Assembly (NCBI GenBank): GCA_020722645.1 | Contig: DYKL01000004.1 | Coordinates: 1 to 32,856 of the forward strand | DNA length: 32,856 nucleotides | Origin: Acetofilamentum sp. | Lineage (GTDB): Bacteria; Bacteroidota; Bacteroidia; Bacteroidales; JAFGUD01 | Direction of reading: 5' to 3' | Shown here: in pieces, positions 8,871 to 26,530 of the stretch | How positions within the stretch are numbered: position 1 is the stretch's first letter | Layout of the letters: each line of letters starts with the position of its first letter | Notes under the pieces: model-generated | Seen by the model: the letters and a program-made list of their open reading frames with translations, nothing else | Databases searched by the model: none | What the model was told of the DNA's origin: nothing | Made by a program: the position numbers and the translations under genes

Positions 8871-8886
8871 TGTTCCACGTGGAACA
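8871..8886. promoter_or_regulatory. parS: parS centromere-like site (ParB/Spo0J binding), copy 1
   Basis: Perfect palindrome TGTTCCACGTGGAACA matching the widespread parS consensus TGTTNCACGTGNAACA. Confidence 0.9.
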
Positions 8887-8923: not shown

Positions 8924-8939
8924 TGTTCCACGTGGAACA
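8924..8939. promoter_or_regulatory. parS: parS site, copy 2
   Basis: Identical TGTTCCACGTGGAACA; palindrome extends to 24 bp (8920-8943); 53 bp from copy 1. Confidence 0.9.
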
Positions 8940-8945
8940 TTTTAA

Positions 8946-10817
8946 CTATCTTTTCAAAAAAATCAAAATAGTATTAATGTCAGAAGGAGAAACGCCCGGT
9001 ATCCGTTGAGCTTCTCCAATGGTTCTTGGTTTAATTCTGTTTAATTTCTGTCTTGCTTCGGTTGAAATAGATTGTAGTTGTTGATAATCAAAATCGGGGT
9101 TGAGTTTTATGTTTTCTAATTTTATAATTTTTTCTGCAATTTCTTTTTCTTTGTCTATATAGTTTTGATATTTAATTTTAATTTCAGCAGATTCAATAAT
9201 CTCGTTGTTAATATTATTTTGTTCAATAAAATTCGAAATTTTTGGTAAAATTTCTTTTAAAGTAGAAATAGAAACTTCCGGTCTTAAAAGAAATTTTTCA
9301 GCTTTAAGACTTTGCGATAAAGCTGCTGAATTTATCTGTTTCAAATAATCATTTGCTTCACTTGGGGAAATTCTCAATTTTGCAATAAAATTAATAAACT
9401 TATTTATTAATTCGTATTTGTTTTTGTAAATATCATATCTATTCTTGGGAAGTAATCCTATTTCGTGACCCAAATCGGATAAACGTTCATCTGCATTATC
9501 TTGTCTCAATAAAATTCTATATTCAGCTCTTGATGTAAACATTCTATATGGTTCATCAACTCCTTTTAAGACCAAATCATCAATAAGAACACCAATGTAA
9601 GAGCTATCACGAGATAAAACAACAGGTTCTAAATCGTTTAAGATACGATGAGCATTAATTGCAGCCATCAAACCTTGAGCTGCAGCTTCTTCGTATCCGG
9701 TTGTTCCATTTACTTGACCGGCAAAAAAAAGATTTTTTATAATTTTTGATTCTAAAGAGTGATTTAATTGAGTAGGTGGAAAATAATCGTATTCAATAGC
9801 ATAAGCCGGTCTGAAAATAGTAGCATTTTCAAAACCTTCAATTTTACTTAATGCTTTTTCCTGAATTTCTAAAGGCAAAGAAGAAGAAAAACCATTAAGA
9901 TAATATTCTACGGTGTCAGTACCTTCGGGTTCAAGGAATAAAAGATGTTGATTTTTTTCAGAAAAAGTAACTAATTTATCCTCAATACTTGGGCAATATC
10001 TTGGACCACGACCTTTAATAACGCCTGAAAAAAGAGGAGAAAATTTGAACCCTTTTTTTAATTCATTATGAACATCTAAATTAGTATAAACTAAAAAACA
10101 ACTTTTAGAAGGAAGTATTTGTTTTGATTCCGGGTCATAAGAAAATTTACCGGTTTGCTCATCAGGTTTTTGTTCAATAAGCTTAGAAAAATCTACGGTT
10201 CTGCCGTCAATTCTAGGTGGTGTACCGGTTTTCATTCTGTCAGCTTTAATACCGAGGCTAACAATTTGTTCGGTTAGATGATAAGAAGCTTCCTCTCCTA
10301 CTCTCCCGCCCTGAATTTGATTACTACCAACGTGCATTAAGCCATTTAAAAAAGTACCGGCAGTTAAAATAACAGCTTTAGAATAAAAAGAAACACCCCA
10401 TTTAGTTCTGACACCTTTTAAAATATCTTTTTCAACAATAAGTTGAGTTACGGTATCTTGCCAGAAATATAAATTAGGTATTTTTTCCAATCTGTCACGC
10501 CAAGCAATCGAAAATTTAACTCTGTCAGATTGAGCTCTGGGACTCCACATAGCCGGACCTTTTGATTTATTGAGCATTCTGAATTGAATCATAGTTTCGT
10601 CTGTAACATAACCGGATAGTCCACCTAAAGCATCAATTTCACGAATAATCTGACCTTTTGCTATACCGCCCATTGCAGGATTACAAGACATTTGAGCTAT
10701 TTTAGTCATATCCATAGTTACAAGTAAGACAGAAGAGCCAAGATTAGCAGCGGCAGAAGCAGCTTCAGCACCAGCGTGACCGGCACCAACTACAATAATA
10801 TCAAAATTTGTTTTCAC
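8946..10817 (-). CDS. mnmG: tRNA uridine-5-carboxymethylaminomethyl(34) synthesis enzyme MnmG (GidA)
   Basis: VVGAGHAGAEAA, MSCNPAMGGIAKG, KTGTPPR, GPRYCPSIEDK, AGQVNGTTGYEEAAAQG, YRMFTSRAEYR; GTG start. Confidence 0.98.
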   Translation of the reverse strand: MKTNFDIIVVGAGHAGAEAASAAANLGSSVLLVTMDMTKIAQMSCNPAMGGIAKGQIIREIDALGGLSGYVTDETMIQFRMLNKSKGPAMWSPRAQSDRVKFSIAWRDRLEKIPNLYFWQDTVTQLIVEKDILKGVRTKWGVSFYSKAVILTAGTFLNGLMHVGSNQIQGGRVGEEASYHLTEQIVSLGIKADRMKTGTPPRIDGRTVDFSKLIEQKPDEQTGKFSYDPESKQILPSKSCFLVYTNLDVHNELKKGFKFSPLFSGVIKGRGPRYCPSIEDKLVTFSEKNQHLLFLEPEGTDTVEYYLNGFSSSLPLEIQEKALSKIEGFENATIFRPAYAIEYDYFPPTQLNHSLESKIIKNLFFAGQVNGTTGYEEAAAQGLMAAINAHRILNDLEPVVLSRDSSYIGVLIDDLVLKGVDEPYRMFTSRAEYRILLRQDNADERLSDLGHEIGLLPKNRYDIYKNKYELINKFINFIAKLRISPSEANDYLKQINSAALSQSLKAEKFLLRPEVSISTLKEILPKISNFIEQNNINNEIIESAEIKIKYQNYIDKEKEIAEKIIKLENIKLNPDFDYQQLQSISTEARQKLNRIKPRTIGEAQRIPGVSPSDINTILIFLKR

Positions 10818-11670: not shown

Positions 11671-14600
11671 TATAGTAGGTTTTATAAAAAGGGTTTAACT
11701 GTAGTATTTTTTTTGAAAAAGATTCATTTAAAAGTTTATAATCATTAAAATATTTTTCTATATCTTCGGGTGAATTAGTATTTAGGTTGTTTCCGACTTT
11801 GGATTCTCGTTTATCGTCGTATTTTCTTTTATTATCAGAATTTTCGACTTCCAAAAGTCGCGTTTTAATTTCATTATCTCTTTGTAAAATTTCAGGTGTT
11901 ATATTATTGTTTAGAATATCTTTTTTAATATCATCATTTATTTGGTTAATCTCGTTCAATAATTTGGACATTTCATCAGAAAGCTGACCGGAATTTAGCA
12001 TATCTTCGAGCATTTTTTGAAAAGCTTCTCTTTTAGCGACTTGCTGCCCCATCTGTTCAGAAGTATATTGCCCATTTTTCATTTGGTTAATCATTTCCTG
12101 AAGTTGTTGCTGCATAGATTGTTGCATTTGTTTCATATCACCTACAGACATTTGCTGAGGTTTGCTGGAAGATGGATTTCCTGACCCGGGCATACTCATC
12201 TGATTTTGCATATTTTGCAAAGACTCTTGCAACATTAAAGCTAATTTATTGACAGATTCAATTGTATATCTTTGATTTATTGCTGCTTCATTTCTTTTAT
12301 TGACATTCAAATTTTGGATTGTTTTATCTAAATTATTTCTGATATTTACTAATTCATCTGTAATAGGTTTAGAAATAGTAGGATTTCTTTTGGCTAAAGC
12401 ATATAAAGTATCATTGATTACAGCATATTGATTTTGCAATGCTATTTGATTGATTTTCAATTCTATATATGCTTCAGATTTATACGATAAATTTTTCTGT
12501 GTTAATAAATTTAATTGTTCTTGTGTAAATGAAAAATTAAGCAAATTAGATAATAAAAATTTAATAGCCTGTTCATCTTCGGAATTTTGCATCATAGAAT
12601 TTTGCATCATCATATTAGACATCTGTTCAGAAAGATTCTTCATTTGTTCAGAAGAATTTTTCATATTCTGAGAAGCCTTTTTATTTTTATTTTCAAACAT
12701 ATTTTCTTTTGCTTGTTCAAATTCCTGATTTATCTGTTCAATTTCTTCCTGAAATTCTTCTAAAATGTATGGCTTTTCGAGTGATTGATTATAATTTTGA
12801 AGACTGTCATATTCCTGCATTAAATCTTCAAATTTTTTCTGATTTGTTAAAAGAGAATCTTGAAGTTCTTGATTATTTTTGTCAGATTTTTTAAAAGATT
12901 CAGATAAGTTTTCCTGTTCTTTAGCTAATTCATTGAGTTGATTTGCCACATTTTGCACATCTTGTTCCAACTTCATTCTTTTCAGTAATTCTTGAGTACG
13001 TTCCATTTCTTTAGACATATCTTCATAAGACAATTCTGTTTTTTTCAGAGTATTATCAAATTTTTTATCATCAAATTTACTTTGTAATTCTTTTAATTGC
13101 TCTAATAAATCTTTAATTTCATCGGTCATTAATTCATCTAATAATTTTTGAATTTCTTCGTGTTTCTTTAACAAATCTTCATTTTTTGGGTCGAAAGATT
13201 TTAAATTGTTAAGTTTTTCTTGATTTTCCTTTTTTAAAGAATCTAAAAGTTGTTCCAATTCATTTTGTTTGTTCAAAATATTGTCTAAAAAACTTTGTTT
13301 TTCCCATTTGCTAACCTCTTCATTTAATAATTTCTGATTAAAATTGTCAATATCCTGCTGAATGTCAAAAGATAATTGATAAGCATTGTTTAATTGCTCC
13401 TGCACTTTTTCATCAGAAACATTAAAAGCAGAATCAAGCTCGTTTAAAGAAGGGATATAAAAATTAAATTGTGAAGTAGCAGTTGATTTATAGCCGCTTA
13501 CATAATCGTTGTCAGTAATTTTGAAAAAATACTTAACTATTTGATTATTAGATATTTTTAAATCAGAAAAATCAAAGATATAAAAAAACTCCTGATTAGA
13601 TTGAAATTTGGAAATATCAATATTTACAGATTCATAATTATCAGCCTGTTCAGAATTTTTATCATTTACTGAATAGTTGAAAGATAAAGACTTAAAACCA
13701 TAATCATCTGAAATTAGCCCTCTGAAGAAAAATAAAGAATAATTATTTGAATCCTGAACCTGCTGAACAGCGATATTAGGATATAAATCAGGAATTACAG
13801 ATAAATTATATTCAAACAAAGAATTCTGAACATACTTATTTTTAACAATAATAGAATAGCTTGCTGATATTAAGGCTTGATAAGTAATGCTGAAAGTTTG
13901 TTTTTCGTTTTTTGAATAAATCTTATTAGAATCAACAAGCATTAAAAGAGTGTCGATGTTGTTACCGGAAAAATTAAATTTCAAAACAGAGCCGTAAGGA
14001 ACAATTAAATCGCCTGTATTTTTGAGAGAATACTTTGATTTTCCAGTATATGAAGGAGGTAAAATATCAACGGAAAAATCAGATATTTGAGGTGTTGGAA
14101 GAATAGAGATTTGATATTTAGACGATTTAAAATTATCAGCTTCGAAATAAAAAGAAAAGTTGTTGTTTATTGATTTAAAGTTGTATTCAAAAATACTTTT
14201 TTTAGAGCCGATAATCATAGGAATTTTATTAGAACCATAGACTATATAAACAATAGATGGGACATATTCGCCTGTAATTTGTACAAGTACATTGAAATCA
14301 GCTCCGTTTTGAACTTCCAAATTTTTATTTAACAAATTGAAGTTAAAAGGAGCTTGCTGTTCATATAAAACACCGTAATTTACGAATCTTTCAGTTCCAA
14401 GTTTAAGAATATTATTATTAAAAATAACAAAAAACAAAAGAATGAGTAGCGGAATAAATAAATATTTATAATATTTATTCAAATCTTTTGATGAAAGAGC
14501 ATTAGAAAAATTGAACAATTTGATGTTGCTAATTTTCTGATTTATAGCTGCATTAATAAGGCTGATGTTTTGTTTATCCGATATTTGTTCATTTAATTCC

Positions 14601-14935
14601 AAAATATTGATTAAAATATCTTGAATTTGAGGAATTTTTTCTGAAATATAAGTTGCAGCCTTATAATTTGAAATAGTAGGGAGTAATTTAATAACTTTTA
14701 AAAAAGGAATTATAATTAAATCGGCTAATATAAAGAGTAAAACTACTACGTAAGAAAAAAACAAAACTTTTTTTATACTAACAGGTAAATAATAAAAATA
14801 ATTAATTGCAACAATTAACAAAAAAATAAGAGAAAGAATAGAAACAGAAAAAATTAAACCTTTTAAGAGTTTGAATAAATAAAGCTTCCTAACAAATTTA
14901 TTTATATTTATATTTATGTCATTAATATTGTTCAT
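11639..14935 (-). CDS. DUF4175-like membrane-anchored, long coiled-coil protein
   Basis: Three N-terminal hydrophobic segments, beta-rich middle with PPSYTG and ISDDYGF motifs, long Q/E/M-rich helical tail. Confidence 0.7.
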   Translation of the reverse strand: MNNINDINININKFVRKLYLFKLLKGLIFSVSILSLIFLLIVAINYFYYLPVSIKKVLFFSYVVVLLFILADLIIIPFLKVIKLLPTISNYKAATYISEKIPQIQDILINILELNEQISDKQNISLINAAINQKISNIKLFNFSNALSSKDLNKYYKYLFIPLLILLFFVIFNNNILKLGTERFVNYGVLYEQQAPFNFNLLNKNLEVQNGADFNVLVQITGEYVPSIVYIVYGSNKIPMIIGSKKSIFEYNFKSINNNFSFYFEADNFKSSKYQISILPTPQISDFSVDILPPSYTGKSKYSLKNTGDLIVPYGSVLKFNFSGNNIDTLLMLVDSNKIYSKNEKQTFSITYQALISASYSIIVKNKYVQNSLFEYNLSVIPDLYPNIAVQQVQDSNNYSLFFFRGLISDDYGFKSLSFNYSVNDKNSEQADNYESVNIDISKFQSNQEFFYIFDFSDLKISNNQIVKYFFKITDNDYVSGYKSTATSQFNFYIPSLNELDSAFNVSDEKVQEQLNNAYQLSFDIQQDIDNFNQKLLNEEVSKWEKQSFLDNILNKQNELEQLLDSLKKENQEKLNNLKSFDPKNEDLLKKHEEIQKLLDELMTDEIKDLLEQLKELQSKFDDKKFDNTLKKTELSYEDMSKEMERTQELLKRMKLEQDVQNVANQLNELAKEQENLSESFKKSDKNNQELQDSLLTNQKKFEDLMQEYDSLQNYNQSLEKPYILEEFQEEIEQINQEFEQAKENMFENKNKKASQNMKNSSEQMKNLSEQMSNMMMQNSMMQNSEDEQAIKFLLSNLLNFSFTQEQLNLLTQKNLSYKSEAYIELKINQIALQNQYAVINDTLYALAKRNPTISKPITDELVNIRNNLDKTIQNLNVNKRNEAAINQRYTIESVNKLALMLQESLQNMQNQMSMPGSGNPSSSKPQQMSVGDMKQMQQSMQQQLQEMINQMKNGQYTSEQMGQQVAKREAFQKMLEDMLNSGQLSDEMSKLLNEINQINDDIKKDILNNNITPEILQRDNEIKTRLLEVENSDNKRKYDDKRESKVGNNLNTNSPEDIEKYFNDYKLLNESFSKKILQLNPFYKTYYNDYMYRLGKE

Positions 14936-14940
14936 AAAAA

Positions 14941-16002
14941 CTAATTTAAGTTCAAATATTCAACAGGGTTCAATTTTTCTGTATTATACCAAATCTGTAA
15001 ATTTAAGCAAGGATAAGAATATTTGCTTGTAGATTTTGATACAGAGCCAATAACAAATCCATTTAAAATTTGTTGATTTTGAGATACATATATAAGATTT
15101 AAGTTAGAATAAACAGAATAATAATTATCGTGTTTTAAAATAACCGAATGACCATAATTTGGTAAATTAACAATTGCAATAACTTTAGCATCAGCAATTG
15201 ATTTAACAAGAGTGTCAGTTTTGGAATACAAATCAATTCCATCGTTTACAACAGTAATATTTTTTAGATAAGGGTGATTATGAGTACCAAAAGAACTGAT
15301 AACAACAGAATTGTATAGAGGTGCATTAAATTTTTTCTCAATTTTTTCGGAATTATTTGAATTTAAGCTATATGGCAATTTCAAAAAATAATCGTTCAGC
15401 ATTAAATATGTATTATAATCATTATTTATTATTATACGGATATCATTTGCCTTTTGTTGCAAAATATTTGCAGAATTAAGAGCAATGATAAGATTGTTTT
15501 CAATGTCAACTTTTTGGGTTTGATAATTTTTAATATAAATATCCAATGATTTTACATAATTTTCATAAGAAAGAGATTCATTTATCAATTTTTGTTGAGT
15601 TAATTTAATAAATTGATTTAATTTTTTCAAATAATTTAACAATAACTGCAAATAATTATATCTGTAAAAAGCTTTCGAAAAAGAATCAGCTGAAAAAACA
15701 AATAATTTAGGAGATTTAAGCTGTAGTAGAATTAAATAAATATTTTTTAATAAATCAGCATATAAATCAGAATAAATTTCTAATGTTTTATTATAGACGT
15801 TAATTGAGATTTTGTTTTGATTAATTTGATTTTGATAAAATATAATTTTATTGTTTAATTCAACTAATAATTTTTCGTCATTGTCAATTTTAGATTTTAA
15901 TAAAAGTAAATCGTAAACAGACAAAACAGTATCGTTTAAATTATTAGAAAAAGAAAAAGAAGTTGAAAAAAGTAATATGTTAATAATTAATAGGTTTCGC
16001 AT
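14941..16002 (-). CDS. envC: EnvC-like murein hydrolase activator (coiled coil + degenerate M23/LytM domain)
   Basis: Signal peptide, helical N-region, C-terminal M23 domain with NDGID in place of HxxxD and LNLQI in place of HxH (catalytically inactive pattern). Confidence 0.65.
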   Translation of the reverse strand: MRNLLIINILLFSTSFSFSNNLNDTVLSVYDLLLLKSKIDNDEKLLVELNNKIIFYQNQINQNKISINVYNKTLEIYSDLYADLLKNIYLILLQLKSPKLFVFSADSFSKAFYRYNYLQLLLNYLKKLNQFIKLTQQKLINESLSYENYVKSLDIYIKNYQTQKVDIENNLIIALNSANILQQKANDIRIIINNDYNTYLMLNDYFLKLPYSLNSNNSEKIEKKFNAPLYNSVVISSFGTHNHPYLKNITVVNDGIDLYSKTDTLVKSIADAKVIAIVNLPNYGHSVILKHDNYYSVYSNLNLIYVSQNQQILNGFVIGSVSKSTSKYSYPCLNLQIWYNTEKLNPVEYLNLN

Positions 16003-16753
16003 TATCAGGTAAATTAAATTTTATATTAATTTGTTCATTAAAAATAACTTTTTTGCTAATAATAAATAATGACAAAGTATCTATCGAAACAACTTTTAAT
16101 TCAGTGTGTTCCGGTAAATCATAATTATCGAAAGTTTTAAAATTACTGTAGTTTATATACAAATCTTTATGCAATAAATTATCGTATATTTCGCAGTATT
16201 TAATATTAAAATTGTCTGTTATATAAAATAAATGTGCAATATTAACAATTTTTGAGTTATTTTGATTATATATTAAATTTTTGAAGATATATAAAGAATC
16301 TTTATCAAGCGAATATGAATTCAAGTCTGTGAAATAAGGATAACTGAATAAATCGGCAGTAAAAATGGATTGCAAGGAATAAAAATCGAAAGCAATGCTG
16401 TAATTTTTTAATATAACATCTTTATTACCTGCGATATAGTCTTTTTGAACAGGCATATAAATAATAAAAGTATCGGGAGTTGCAAAGATTTCAGCGATAG
16501 TAATTCCAAATCCCAGAGATATTGAAATGTACATAACCGAATCTTTGATAATTTTAGTTGAACCAAAAAAAGATAATTTTTGTTCATTTGAAGAATAATC
16601 AGCACTGAATTTAAAAGACAACGATTTAAAATCCTTATTGACAGAATCAATAAAAGTAGTGCCTGAAATTTTCATTTTTGAGGTATTTTGTTTAAAAATC
16701 GAGCAAGAAGAAATCAGAAAGATTAAAGATATTATTATAAAAAAATTTTTCAT
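15980..16753 (-). CDS. DUF4292 family lipoprotein
   Basis: Lipobox LISSC; DSVMYISIS and TPDTF motifs; position between a TPR gene and the EnvC-like gene as in other Bacteroidota. Confidence 0.7.
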   Translation of the reverse strand: MKNFFIIISLIFLISSCSIFKQNTSKMKISGTTFIDSVNKDFKSLSFKFSADYSSNEQKLSFFGSTKIIKDSVMYISISLGFGITIAEIFATPDTFIIYMPVQKDYIAGNKDVILKNYSIAFDFYSLQSIFTADLFSYPYFTDLNSYSLDKDSLYIFKNLIYNQNNSKIVNIAHLFYITDNFNIKYCEIYDNLLHKDLYINYSNFKTFDNYDLPEHTELKVVSIDTLSLFIISKKVIFNEQINIKFNLPDNAKPINY

Positions 16754-16767
16754 TAAATTGTTTATAA

Positions 16768-18435
16768 TTACAACTGTTTATTTAAAAAAGTGTTGCCCAG
16801 ATTAACAGATTTTAACCAAGCTTCATTAGCTAAATCATTCTTATTTAATTTATTGTAAACATTACCCAATAATTCATAGTATAAAAAATTAGGTTTTGAT
16901 GAATTTGAAATAGCAATTTGACAATAATTTAAAGAAGAGTTATAATCATCAAATTTGTACATAGCATAAGCATAAATGTATGCAATGTTTGAACTTAAAG
17001 AACTTGTTTCGTTTATAATACATTCACCAAGCAGGTTGAAAGTTTTATTTTTGTATAAGGAATTTTGTGCAAAATAAAAAGAGAAATAGGCATTTAAATC
17101 GCAATTTGAAGTAGCAAAAGAAAGAGCATTGTTGTAGTACAAATTTTCATCTGAAAAATTACCTGTTATTCTGAAATATTGAGAGAGATAAAAGTTAAAA
17201 TAAGCCATTAAATCATTTTGTTCGTAAACTATTGATTTACCAAAAATAAGAGCTTCATAAGCATCATTATTTTTTGATAAATTCAGAGATGAAATTCCTT
17301 TGAATAAATATATAACAGGTTGAGCCGGAAACAAATCTATTGCATAAGCAGCTAAAGAATCTAATTTTGAATAAAAACCAAATCTGTTGTATAAGTTAAA
17401 CAATTTCAAGTAAGTTGAAAAATCCGTTATATCTTTACTTTGTTTGATTTCATAGAAATAGATAGCATCATAGAACTTATTATTTATTTCATAAAATTCG
17501 CTTAAAAAATTCACAAATCTTACATTACTTTGATTTTTAAAATATAAATTATAAAAAATAGTATCTAAATCGAAAGAGAAAGAATTGTAATTGAAAAAAT
17601 CCATATTTTCATACAATATCTGTATAAATGCAGAATTAGAAGATAGACAATCGCCTGATTTTTCTAAATAATATAAAACACTGTCTTTTTTGTCGATTAA
17701 AATGTAATATTTGAGCGAAAGTTCATAAAAATAAACAGTTTCAGGAAATAAAGTTTGAATTTTTTTGATATAAAAAAAAGCAGAATCAAGATTTTTTTCA
17801 GACAGATAAAATTGAGCCAAATTCACTAATGATAAGGAATTTTGAGGAAATTTTTGAACAATAGTTTGTAAAAGATTTACAGCATCATCATTTTTACCTG
17901 TTTTTTGCAATAAATTGACTTTTTGAAGATAAAAATCAATTTCGTAATTGAATTTTGATATAGCTGCATTTAAAGCTATTAATTGATTTTTGTAATCAGA
18001 ATAAAAAGCAAAAAAATCAATTGCATTTTGAAAATCATCGTGAATATCTGATTTTTGTATTATTTGTAGTTGTAAATCAGTTGCTTCGTTAATCGAATTA
18101 ACCTTTTCGTAGAGTAAAGCAAGATTTTTTAAATACCAGATATTTTCAGCGTCAATATTAACAGCATTTTCAGCGTAATTTATGGCAAGAAAATATTGAG
18201 CTTCCTGTTCATATATTTTAGATAATAAATAATTTGCGGCAGAAGATTGATTGTCAATTTCCAAGGCTTTAATTAGTAAATATTTAGCTGTATCGGTATT
18301 TTCAGTTAATAAAAATCGTTGAGCCTCAGAAAAATATTCGATAAATTTTTCCTTTTCGACTGTTTGAGAATTGAGCGATAAAAAAGACAAAAAACAAATA
18401 ATAAAACCAAATATTTTATATTTTATCATAATCAC
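16768..18435 (-). CDS. Exported tetratricopeptide repeat protein
   Basis: Signal peptide; repeated TPR-like units (KALEID.QSSAANYLLS, ELLGNVY...ANEAWLKS). Confidence 0.8.
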   Translation of the reverse strand: MIMIKYKIFGFIICFLSFLSLNSQTVEKEKFIEYFSEAQRFLLTENTDTAKYLLIKALEIDNQSSAANYLLSKIYEQEAQYFLAINYAENAVNIDAENIWYLKNLALLYEKVNSINEATDLQLQIIQKSDIHDDFQNAIDFFAFYSDYKNQLIALNAAISKFNYEIDFYLQKVNLLQKTGKNDDAVNLLQTIVQKFPQNSLSLVNLAQFYLSEKNLDSAFFYIKKIQTLFPETVYFYELSLKYYILIDKKDSVLYYLEKSGDCLSSNSAFIQILYENMDFFNYNSFSFDLDTIFYNLYFKNQSNVRFVNFLSEFYEINNKFYDAIYFYEIKQSKDITDFSTYLKLFNLYNRFGFYSKLDSLAAYAIDLFPAQPVIYLFKGISSLNLSKNNDAYEALIFGKSIVYEQNDLMAYFNFYLSQYFRITGNFSDENLYYNNALSFATSNCDLNAYFSFYFAQNSLYKNKTFNLLGECIINETSSLSSNIAYIYAYAMYKFDDYNSSLNYCQIAISNSSKPNFLYYELLGNVYNKLNKNDLANEAWLKSVNLGNTFLNKQL

Positions 18436-23887: not shown

Positions 23888-24296
23888 GCTTAGTTACTAT
23901 CTCATTTATTGTTAATTCTTTAAATACCTTATAAATTTGTTCAAGTATCGGATCTAACTTCATTCTAAACGGACAAACTTCTTTCATTTTAATGTCTTTT
24001 TTGCAAATTTGCAATCCGATTAAACATTCATTATACATTTCTAAACCATCGAATATTTCTACAATATCCAAAATACTTATTTTTGAAGGATTTTTTTGAA
24101 ATTTAATGCCACCTTGTATTCCTCTTTGCGAATAAAGGATTTTATGCTTTGTTAAATTAGAAATAATTTTGGTTAAAAAGGAATAAGAAATATTCAAATC
24201 TTTGGCTATCTGTTTAATGTTTACCAAAGAATCTTTTTGATTAAAAGCTATATAAATCAAAGCTCTGATAGCATATTTTGTAGTTGCTGAAAGCAT
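23856..24296 (-). CDS. Rrf2 family transcriptional regulator (three C-terminal Cys)
   Basis: KYAIRALIYIA, helix-turn-helix, SQRGIQGG wing, CLIGLQIC...CPF. Confidence 0.9.
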   Translation of the reverse strand: MLSATTKYAIRALIYIAFNQKDSLVNIKQIAKDLNISYSFLTKIISNLTKHKILYSQRGIQGGIKFQKNPSKISILDIVEIFDGLEMYNECLIGLQICKKDIKMKEVCPFRMKLDPILEQIYKVFKELTINEIVTKLKPFDVSLLL

Positions 24297-24305
24297 AATA
24301 ATAAT

Positions 24306-24740
24306 TTACAAAGGTATTTTATCTATTCGTTTTTGATGTCTTCCGCCTTCAAATCCGGTAGATAGAAAATTATCAACAATTTGTACAGCAGTCTCAAAGT
24401 CTATAAATCTTGCAGGTAAGGAACAAACATTAGCATCATTATGCAATCTTGCCAACTTTGCAATTTCGGGTGTCCAGCATAATGCTGAGCGAATAAGCTG
24501 ATGCTTATTTGCGGTCATATTTATTCCGTTACCGGAACCGCATAAAGATATGCCGAAATTGAATTCTTTTTGTTCAACAGCCTTAGCCATAGGATGTGCA
24601 AAATCAGGATAATCTGCACTTTCTTCGGAATAGCATCCGTAATCAAATAAACTGTATCCTTTACTTTTTAAATAATCTATAAGTTGTAATTTTAACTTGT
24701 AGCCAGCGTGGTCAGAGGATAACGCAATTTTAATCTTCAT
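24306..24740 (-). CDS. rpiB: Ribose-5-phosphate isomerase B
   Basis: SDHAG, DYPD, CGSGNG, ANK, HNDAN, FEGGRHQKRI. Confidence 0.97.
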   Translation of the reverse strand: MKIKIALSSDHAGYKLKLQLIDYLKSKGYSLFDYGCYSEESADYPDFAHPMAKAVEQKEFNFGISLCGSGNGINMTANKHQLIRSALCWTPEIAKLARLHNDANVCSLPARFIDFETAVQIVDNFLSTGFEGGRHQKRIDKIPL

Positions 24741-25585
24741 TTTATTATGCTTTTTTAAATAAATTATTTACAAATTTAATTATATTTGCGTTTTTAATTG
24801 AATTTTTTTGTAAAATATTTCTTTAATAATTTGAATTTACTGAAAAATAAATAATCAATAGTTCGGTATATTTTGAAGTAATTCGTTAATATTCAGCAAA
24901 TTGATTTTGTATGTGTAACAAATTAGTAGTTGATTGAAAATCAATAATTTGCTTCCTTCGTTATAACTCTGGATGACGCTAAATGAAAAATTAACGAATT
25001 ATTGAATAATAGTATCTTTTATTTATTATAATTGTTCTTATATGTTTTGTTCTTATTGTGAAAAATGATTGCTAAAAAGTAATGTAAATAACTGAATAAT
25101 AAAATGTTAAATTGCATTATCAACAATTATTTTTTGATGTAATTAAAACAAAAAGCATAGTTTTTGTTTTTAATTGTTTAATAATCAATAAAATACAATC
25201 TAATTTGAAATGTAAAATATTATTAACAATTTTGTTAATAAAAGTTCAAAAACTTAGAATAAGTTTCAAGTATTTTTAAAAAAATCAAAATTTGAATAAA
25301 TTAAAAATATTTTTACAAGTTACTTAACATTAATTTAACAAAAAATTTACATTGCTCATTCAACTATTTTTTCACAATTAAAAAAACAGTCTTAAATATT
25401 TAAAAACATAAATAGTTTATTTTCAGCAAAATAAATGATTACAATTAGTTAATAATATGTGGAAAAAAGTAAAGTTTTTTAATATCCAAGAAAAATTGAT
25501 TTTTTTTTTTCACTATATTAACAATCTATTATTATCATTATTTCTTTTAAATTAATTAATTTTTATTTATATTAATAATATAATT
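24741..25585. other. oriC: Predicted chromosomal replication origin (oriC)
   Basis: Longest intergenic region, extremely AT-rich, at the gene-orientation switch. TTWTNCACA matches at 25057-25065(-), 25368-25376(+), 25458-25466(-). One-mismatch boxes at 24764, 25083, 25117, 25220, 25233, 25506. Trio array 25526-25540; A/T-only run 25545-25585; parS pair and mnmG nearby. Confidence 0.8.
24771..24788. promoter_or_regulatory. Back-to-back -7 elements: one for rpiB (minus), one facing into the origin (plus)
   Basis: TAAATTTG on minus at 24771-24778; TATATTTG (followed by CG) on plus at 24781-24788. Confidence 0.55.
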
Positions 25586-26530
25586 ATGGTTGATAACATA
25601 AAAAATGAAATTTTAAATTTAAAAAATAAAAAAAATGCAATAATATTAGCACACTTTTATGTTGATGACGATATTCAGGATATTGCAGATTTTGTTGGAG
25701 ATAGTCTTGAGCTGTCAAGAAAAGCTTCTTTAACTGATGCCGAAATTATTGTTTTTGCAGGAGTTCATTTTATGGCTGAAACTGCAAAAATTTTATCTCC
25801 TCATAAAAGAGTTCTGATACCTGATATAAATTCAGGATGTCCGTTGGCAGACAGTATGAATATAAATGAGTTCCTAAAATTTAAAGAAAAATATCCCGAT
25901 TATTTTGTTGTTAATTATGTAAATAGTACTGCTGAAATCAAAGCCGTAAGCGATTTAATATGCACATCTTCAAATGCTGTTGCTTTAATAAAATCGTTAC
26001 CCAAAGAAACAAAAATTCTTTTCGGACCTGATAAAAATCTAGGTTCTTATGTAAAATCATTTGTAGAAAATGAAATTGTATTATGGGACGGAAATTGTCC
26101 GGTTCACGAAAATTTTTCTGCTGAAAAACTGAAACTTTTGAAAAAACAATATCCTTCAGTTAAAGTATTAGCACACCCTGAGGCTAACAAAGATGTTCTT
26201 TTAAAATCCGATTTTATTGGCTCTACATCACAAATTTTGAAATTTGTCGAAAATAGCGACAATAAACAATTTATTATTGCAACTGAGCCGGGAGTTATTC
26301 ACAAAATGAAAGAAATTAAACCCGATAATTTATATATACCGCTTCCTCCTATCACAAAACATAGTCAAAGTATTTGCTATAATATGAAAAAGCATACCAT
26401 AGAAAAAGTTTATTATTCTTTAAAAAACGAGCAACACGAAATTATTATGAAAGATGACTTGATTGAAAAAGCTAAAATACCAATAACAAGAATGATTGAT
26501 ATATCTTTAAAGTTAGAATTAATAAAATAA
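25586..26530 (+). CDS. nadA: Quinolinate synthase A
   Basis: ILAHFY, GDSLEL, GVHFMAETAKIL, YVNS, AHPE; three Fe-S cysteines in GCPLAD, NCPVHE, ICYNMK. Confidence 0.96.
   Translation: MVDNIKNEILNLKNKKNAIILAHFYVDDDIQDIADFVGDSLELSRKASLTDAEIIVFAGVHFMAETAKILSPHKRVLIPDINSGCPLADSMNINEFLKFKEKYPDYFVVNYVNSTAEIKAVSDLICTSSNAVALIKSLPKETKILFGPDKNLGSYVKSFVENEIVLWDGNCPVHENFSAEKLKLLKKQYPSVKVLAHPEANKDVLLKSDFIGSTSQILKFVENSDNKQFIIATEPGVIHKMKEIKPDNLYIPLPPITKHSQSICYNMKKHTIEKVYYSLKNEQHEIIMKDDLIEKAKIPITRMIDISLKLELIK

Follow-up and report, generated by a model that had tools for sequence, protein, structure and literature searches.

Where does replication begin in a chromosome whose most conspicuous cluster of DnaA-type boxes lies apart from dnaA? 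The question is raised by the intergenic gap between rpiB and nadA in the genome of Acetofilamentum sp. (Bacteroidales; assembly GCA_020722645.1; 3.93 Mb in 684 contigs, 30.5% G+C, 96.7% complete). The DNA analysed was the whole of contig DYKL01000004.1 (C59; 32,856 nucleotides), hereafter called the window, and the sole dnaA of this genome is found on a different contig from the gap (C95:15491-16915). The gap and its two flanking genes are as follows.

24741..25585, no strand assigned: predicted replication origin (oriC) region, the rpiB-nadA intergenic gap; 845 bp, 16% G+C
24306..24740, minus strand: rpiB, the left flank, with transcription directed away from the gap (Pfam LacAB_rpiB, 2e-55)
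25586..26530, plus strand: nadA, the right flank and the conserved anchor of the predicted origin (Pfam NadA, 8e-118)

An earlier note, made from the letters of the window alone, had read this gap as an oriC unlinked from dnaA. That reading is supported mainly because of the comparison with relatives, chiefly by their GC skew, by the homology of a core next to nadA and by the box motif. The gap has a box cluster above the background of comparable DNA and is homologous to the origin region of relatives. Its position and box content, the homology of its core and the uniqueness of that core in the genome are established, as is the coincidence, in relatives, of the skew minimum with the syntenic gap. 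As judged from these sequence comparisons, the gap is very probably a DnaA-dependent chromosomal replication origin.

A conserved core upstream of nadA

The regions upstream of nadA were inspected across the order, as the earlier note had proposed, and a core could be aligned in 26 of 32 relatives. The resulting nadA-anchored alignment (A2) spans about 200 bp and holds 27 rows, the window and the 26 relatives; its coordinates were centred by eye. An nhmmer profile of the 26 relatives, from which the window was excluded, was run against both strands of the whole genome and gave a sole significant match, C59:25406-25582 (E 7.3e-10, 39.7 bits), covering profile positions 22-200 of 209. The next-best match in the genome had an E value of 0.074. 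The predicted functional core is the last ~180 bp before nadA (25406-25582). Its elements are as follows.

25406..25582, plus strand: conserved core of the predicted origin, homologous to nadA-upstream DNA of same-order genomes
25447..25466, minus strand: tandem boxes TTATTAACT (25447-25455) and TTTTCCACA (25458-25466, TTWTNCACA class), from A2; consensus of relatives TGTTnATAA-nn-TGTTnnTA
25506..25523, plus strand: tandem boxes A, TTTTTCACT (25506-25514), and B, ATATTAACA (25515-25523), from A2
25527..25541, plus strand: trinucleotide run TAT TAT TAT CAT TAT, at the DnaA-trio position, from A2
25545..25585, no strand assigned: pure A+T, 41 bp, candidate unwinding element ending at the nadA start codon, read directly from the sequence

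The order of elements in A2 is a convergent box pair, ATTTTCAA, the tandem minus-strand boxes, the tandem plus-strand boxes, a spacer, the TAT/CAT run and DNA of A and T alone, which reaches to the nadA start. In 24 of the 27 rows the last four letters of box B are AACA; next comes a 3-bp spacer, usually G/C-rich and, in the window, ATC, after which the TAT/CAT run is conserved in most rows. The sequence CATCATCAT was present in the gaps of six of 19 relatives against an expectation of ~0.1. A TTTTAAATTT / ATATATA stretch is conserved at the position of the A+T element; since A+T makes up 84% of the gap as a whole, these 41 bp do not stand out by composition alone.

Two further stretches of A2 were conserved. 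The ATTTTCAA element occupies columns ~52-60 (window ~25424-25431), and a ATATATATAATAT stretch lies immediately before the nadA start at columns ~215-235 (window ~25566-25582). This second stretch may represent the nadA promoter or else form part of the unwinding region.

Other routes to the homology were tried and given up. Whole-gap DNA similarity against 40 relatives returned only AT-rich noise and copies of a miniature inverted-repeat transposable element (MITE), and homology emerged only with nadA anchoring. In a four-way MAFFT alignment, most of the full-gap sequence proved impossible to align. A strict regular expression (box, spacer and four NAT triplets) found eight of 33 relatives and 18 matches in the genome, which was too rigid, and the profile was used instead.

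GC skew in relatives

The coarse GC skew of complete, single-contig genomes of the same order was assessed via twenty 20-kb samples per chromosome. The switch from minus to plus and the position of nadA were as follows.

G031, 4.87 Mb: switch at 2.2-2.7 Mb; nadA at 2.550 Mb
G075, 3.93 Mb: switch at 0.80-1.18 Mb; nadA at 0.9665 Mb
G107, 4.60 Mb, with a noisier profile: switch at 3.62-3.91 Mb; nadA at 3.775 Mb

An origin-type switch thus brackets nadA in all three complete relatives sampled. Fine mapping used contiguous sequence around nadA, and two more relatives, G116 and G059, were mapped only locally (120 kb and 40 kb, respectively). The local cumulative minima are given below.

G031: 2,550,079, within the gap, where three TTATACACA boxes surround it
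G075: 966,453, ~70 bp away from the gap; four TTATCAACA lie in that gap
G107: 3,774,997, within the gap
G116: 663,952, 1.8 kb upstream of nadA
G059: 963,997, ~450 bp inside nadA

The minimum falls in the nadA-upstream gap in two of the five relatives and 70 bp to 1.8 kb away in the other three. In the window itself the skew is -0.051 left of the gap and +0.097 right of it, which is compatible with an origin but not decisive.

The distance from dnaA to the gap amounts to 49% of the chromosome in G031, 40% in G075, 44.5% in G107 and 31% in G116, with dnaA at G031:C1 ~146 kb, G075:C1 ~2.55 Mb, G107:C1 ~1.22 Mb and G116:C1 ~3.49 Mb. In G031, G075 and G107 dnaA lies near the terminus-type switch, an unusual site for an initiator gene.

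DnaA-type boxes

Beyond the core, a motif scan of the gap located the following boxes.

25057..25065, minus strand: TTTTTCACA (TTWTNCACA class)
25117..25125, plus strand: TTATCAACA (TTATYAACA class)
25220..25241, no strand assigned: convergent pair of boxes, TTATTAACA each, at 25220 (plus) and 25233 (minus) with 4 bp between them
25368..25376, plus strand: TTTTTCACA (TTWTNCACA class)

All six boxes of the earlier note were recovered: three TTWTNCACA boxes at 25057 (minus), 25368 (plus) and 25458 (minus), and TTATYAACA at 25117, 25220 and 25233, of which the last two, described there as an inverted pair, are convergent. What that note had not listed is a 149-bp MITE, the two tandem boxes and the trinucleotide run of the core. 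Convergent box pairs like that of the window, with 1-3 bp between the boxes, also occur in four loci of relatives (L139, L140, L143 and L163).

When TTATYAACA and TTWTNCACA were scanned together, the six sites within 600 bp of the gap were the unique maximum of the 3.93-Mb genome (runner-up four). The earlier note had made its reading depend on a box density above that of other AT-rich intergenic regions, and this is what was found with the lineage motif: over 327 intergenic gaps of at least 300 bp, the rpiB-nadA gap ranked top with six sites, the runner-up had three and the background was 0.48/kb. By itself, TTWTNCACA is unexceptional, as three sites in 845 bp occur at ~10 other places in the genome; for TTATYAACA by itself, the gap is within the top three places.

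Since this excess depends on a lineage-specific motif, the motif was derived independently from relatives. Their 19 gaps, the window excluded, contain 37 copies of TTATTAACA against ~1.6 expected from dinucleotide shuffles, and 17 of the 19 have it. The idea of lineage-specific boxes was thus borne out by the relatives, but the status of "variant" given to TTATYAACA was wrong, as comparison identifies it as the dominant conserved box of the order and not a side variant. TTATTAACA differs from TTATCCACA by two mismatches, one of them at position 6 (C to A; the A6 form), and keeps seven of nine box positions. Default box definitions under-call such origins; TTATTAACA lies two mismatches away from the E. 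coli box.

One could argue that the origin is here but that TTATYAACA is bound by another lineage-specific protein, DnaA using only the few CACA-type boxes. TTATTAACA and TTATCCACA differ at two positions, C6 included, and C6 lies in the part that the recognition helix reads according to passages of PMC5742627, where the E. coli DnaA helix 434-451 is described as reading 5'-TnCACA-3' and the T435M change as defective in box binding. Against such a division of labour, CACA and AACA forms interchange between genomes at the box A and box B columns of A2, which argues that one protein reads both forms; A6 and C6 forms exchange at orthologous positions, most of the box (the seven positions named above) is kept, and other Bacteroidota have canonical TTATCCACA upstream of nadA. 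The recognition helix begins with DHSTV in this genome (L001:2224-2511, DnaA domain IV), DHATV in four relatives (L187-L190) and DHTTV in B. subtilis, with residues matched by eye. Ser or Ala in place of the B. subtilis Thr would suit a shifted preference, and this exchange at the helix start may be linked to the preference for A6 boxes. A second box-binding protein is, in our view, unlikely.

The convergent pair, TTATTAACA-N4-TGTTAATAA, also resembles a dimer operator, and the promoters of both rpiB and nadA must sit in the gap. On this basis the gap could be a long divergent promoter region, lengthened by the MITE (149 bp of mobile insertion), with TTATYAACA sites serving as operators of a transcription factor such as a regulator of NAD synthesis and with the origin on another contig; a gap lacking the canonical TTATNCACA box would fit this as well. 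The homologous gap, however, coincides with the skew minimum in all five relatives (in the gap or within 1.8 kb), and the gaps of relatives carry up to nine sites each in both orientations and at variable spacing. The A6 form swaps with canonical CCACA or TCACA at the same A2 columns, no comparable box cluster or core-profile match was found elsewhere in the genome, and the flanks of dnaA are free of boxes. We consider operators at this place quite improbable.

Other candidate loci were examined as the origin. DnaA-type boxes were looked for in the flanks of dnaA on C95 and none are present, which speaks against a dnaA-adjacent origin there. C85:1959-4069 has six TTWTNCACA in 2.1 kb, mostly within open reading frames (ORFs), and no core-profile match. 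C307:16008-16433 is a 426-bp gap with three boxes, the second-best gap of the genome, and the core profile matches only weakly elsewhere on C307 (E 6.6). The clusters on C85 and C307 could be DnaA-titrating or regulatory sites, or chance.

Linkage to nadA across the phylum

The earlier note had placed the origin between rpiB and nadA. Its coordinates were exact, but the constant neighbour is nadA and not rpiB. A divergent rpiB lies within 1.5 kb of nadA in 19 of the 33 loci examined from the order; the gaps between them measure 421-844 bp and have 14-29% G+C, and the same-genus genome G002 retains this arrangement. The gene on the left differs between genomes: G031 has an Rrf2 gene there and G003 one for a SpoU methylase.

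A survey of 80 nadA loci extended this to the phylum; taxon groups were assigned from record titles, and loci with at least 1 kb upstream were counted.

Bacteroidota, 45 loci: at least two boxes in the upstream kb in 27; 2.11 boxes/kb upstream versus 0.21 in the rest of the locus
Cyanobacteria, 24 loci: at least two boxes in the upstream kb in none; 0.12 boxes/kb upstream versus 0.10 in the rest of the locus

The box-bearing Bacteroidota loci include metagenome-assembled genomes (MAGs) labelled Bacteroides and Prevotella, those labelled Prevotella having four to five boxes, and Pedobacter and Chitinophagaceae have canonical TTATCCACA boxes upstream of nadA. A nadA-adjacent origin in Bacteroides, which the earlier note had mentioned, agrees with this ~10-fold denser occurrence of boxes in the 1 kb upstream of nadA and its absence from the 24 cyanobacterial loci. 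Judged by these boxes, linkage of the predicted origin to nadA is widespread in Bacteroidota but not universal.

The mobile insertion and the evidence against an origin

Part of the gap is a mobile insertion.

24856..25004, plus strand: MITE copy, 149 bp, with ends CAATAGTT...AATTATTG and the target-site duplication AATAAT at 24850-24855 and 25005-25010

The element is short and non-coding (only a 29-aa ORF overlaps it), has terminal inverted repeats and a target-site duplication, and belongs to a family of many near-identical copies. Of the 100 BLAST matches to the family in the genome, 61 are nearly full-length; the ends are sharp and shared, and the copies each have their own 5-6-bp flanking duplication. 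The copy in the gap folds as a long hairpin (z -2.6). Other copies are found at, for example, C115:1729-1900 and C223:18094-18256; many are 90-97% identical, which indicates recent activity. The window-gap similarity search gave no strong match to the MITE part in the same-genus G002, whose gap of 535 bp was not checked directly.

Several observations weigh against the gap as an origin, and the 149 bp of mobile insertion are among them. With 684 contigs, no global skew curve is possible for this genome, and the cumulative skew minimum within the window is at 13,441, while what lies near the gap is only a second minimum, a local one, at 24,124. Among the 32 Bacteroidota loci that have 8 kb of sequence to either side of the nadA start, only 17 show a minus/plus skew pair over these flanks. 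In six of the 32 same-order genomes the DNA upstream of nadA showed no origin module, so the linkage has exceptions. Under the usual box rule of the E. coli / Ori-Finder type (TTATCCACA, at most one mismatch) the gap has only two sites and the whole window 14 versus 10.8 expected, which is no enrichment; the strict TTATNCACA box is absent from the gap; and the two motifs that were ranked genome-wide had been picked with this region already in view. The trinucleotide run also departs from the known consensus, as compared below.

A block at 13.4-18.4 kb, low in G+C and positive in skew, is what moves the minimum to 13,441. This block (13401-18400) has 24% G+C and a skew of +0.126, opposite to its neighbours, and contains minus-strand genes (the end of a DUF4175 protein, an M23 peptidase, a DUF4292 protein and a TPR protein). 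It could result from protein composition, inversion or acquisition.

The six loci without a visible module, which were left out of A2, are L142, L145, L158, L160, L165 and L015 (G048, G112, G062, G088, G086 and G028). In these families either nadA or the origin has relocated. The DNA upstream of nadA in L142 appears coding.

Some of these points would also suit a gap that is a relic or a secondary DnaA-binding locus (datA- or DARS-like, or a former origin) in a genus whose active origin has moved: the skew minimum of the window is at 13.4 kb, away from the gap, a MITE has inserted into the gap, and the absence of the module beside nadA in six of 32 relatives means that the linkage can be lost. 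Such a move is extremely unlikely, as the core is intact over nearly the whole profile (positions 22-200 of 209) and the MITE lies ~400 bp to its left, outside it. The arrangement is kept in the same-genus G002, a pair of parS-like sites is close by, and no competing locus was found in the 96.7%-complete assembly. An active origin in the gap remains the preferred reading.

Flanking genes and other features of the window

The earlier note had seen the gene strand flip at the gap, which holds: left of it 17 of 21 ORFs are on the minus strand (20 of the 21 have Pfam support and one does not) and right of it six of six are on the plus strand. It had also placed mnmG and a parS pair within about 16 kb, as was found.

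8946..10817, minus strand: mnmG (gidA) (Pfam GIDA, 4.5e-153)
8871..8886 and 8924..8939, no strand assigned: pair of parS-like palindromes of identical sequence, TGTTCCACGTGGAACA, lying 15.8 kb from the rpiB-nadA gap

mnmG (gidA) is a frequent neighbour of replication origins. The two parS-like matches in the window compare with 0.21 expected, and two of 100 shuffles also reach two. Their starts are 53 bp apart, inside an 87-bp gap between an adenine deaminase gene and mnmG.

Neither dnaA nor dnaN had a Pfam match among the 27 window ORFs scanned, in agreement with the earlier note. The rpiB-nadA gap contains no credible ORF, the longest being 55 aa and of low complexity; its sigma-70-like promoter matches are at chance (14 versus 12.6), no terminators were found in it and an Rfam scan of it gave no match. 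A C0719 Rfam match (22.7 bits versus a gathering score of 50) lies within the rpiB coding sequence and was taken as chance. A type IX secretion sorting domain is encoded in the window (Pfam); this domain and the named relatives of the window's NadA point to Bacteroidota, and the named relatives make Bacteroidales the probable order.

Proposed mechanism and implications

How DnaA would bind the A6 boxes, what the trinucleotide run would do and where the DNA would unwind are points that we infer, as follows. DnaA, encoded on another contig, would bind scattered 9-bp boxes, mostly TTATYAACA with TTTTNCACA forms in addition. On boxes A and B (25506-25523) it would nucleate a filament that extends along one strand, past the 3-bp spacer and over the five-unit run (25527-25541), while the distal boxes, the convergent pair at 25220/25233 included, would supply additional DnaA. 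The 41-bp A+T stretch (25545-25585) would then melt and the helicase load, giving bidirectional forks co-oriented with most flanking genes.

It is possible, and we put it forward tentatively, that several features belong together: an initiator preferring A6 boxes, the Ser/Ala helix start, a (TAT/CAT)n run mirrored relative to 3'-GAT-5' trios, and an origin that in much of the phylum is fixed at the nadA start codon, with dnaA near the terminus. Together they might represent a re-tuned ancestral unwinding module. If true, this would be a coherent, undescribed origin architecture of a major gut and environmental phylum.

The predicted origin is a concrete, testable one for an uncultured Bacteroidota lineage. 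It also suggests a simple rule, by which nadA-upstream DNA is searched for the core, for finding origins in fragmented Bacteroidales MAGs that have no skew curves. Locating origins by the core would aid coverage-based estimates of growth rate as well as genome orientation. The box-spacer-trinucleotide-AT module would be a natural variant for studying how DnaA reads single-stranded origin DNA.

Comparison with known origins

Classical origins, of the dnaA-dnaN type of B. subtilis or the gidA-mioC type of E. coli, share with this gap a DnaA-box cluster, an AT-rich region and nearby mnmG/gidA and parS. Unlike them, it is flanked by rpiB and nadA, and dnaA is on another contig, so that linkage to dnaA is lacking.

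Cyanobacteria have a lineage-specific DnaA box, TTTTCCACA. Like that box, those of the gap show one or two departures from TTATCCACA with the rest kept, and TTTTCCACA itself is present at 25458. In the gap, unlike in that box, it is mainly position 6 that has changed (C to A), and a passage of PMC5742627 assigns this position to the stretch that the recognition helix reads.

The strand and orientation rule used for the trinucleotide run is the one that we take to apply at E. coli oriC. The core resembles the basal unwinding system (BUS) of B. subtilis and H. pylori in its adjacent same-orientation boxes, short spacer and at least three central-A triplets followed by AT-rich DNA. The operational BUS rule, as worded in part of PMC8287927, asks for a box with at most two mismatches, a spacer of at most 16 bp and at least three NAN triplets, and the core offers ATATTAACA (25515-25523), ATC and TAT TAT TAT CAT TAT, under a rule that is permissive in DNA of 16% G+C. 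Unlike the BUS, the triplets here and in relatives read 5'-TAT/CAT-3' on the box strand and not the consensus 3'-GAT-5'; read by eye, the run contains no 3'-GAT-5' repeats in any frame on either strand. Membership of the canonical DnaA-trio class is not claimed for the run.

Within the phylum, passages of PMC4755523 describe Bacteroidetes oriC as commonly distant from dnaA, and parts of other papers put oriC at dnaA by convention (PMC5771137, PMC5219744). We found no published mention of nadA adjacency, of the TTATYAACA box or of the core module; DoriC and the supplementary tables of the BUS work may list such origins. The predicted oriC of chromosome 1 of Prevotella intermedia OMA14 (DoriC/Ori-Finder type), as far as PMC4755523 describes it in those passages, likewise combines a cluster of boxes at a transition in GC skew with a dnaA gene located elsewhere. 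Unlike such Ori-Finder predictions, the present gap has only two boxes when the E. coli box is allowed one mismatch. The gap is a well-supported prediction of an additional case of the known dnaA-distant Bacteroidetes origins, with a lineage-specific architecture.

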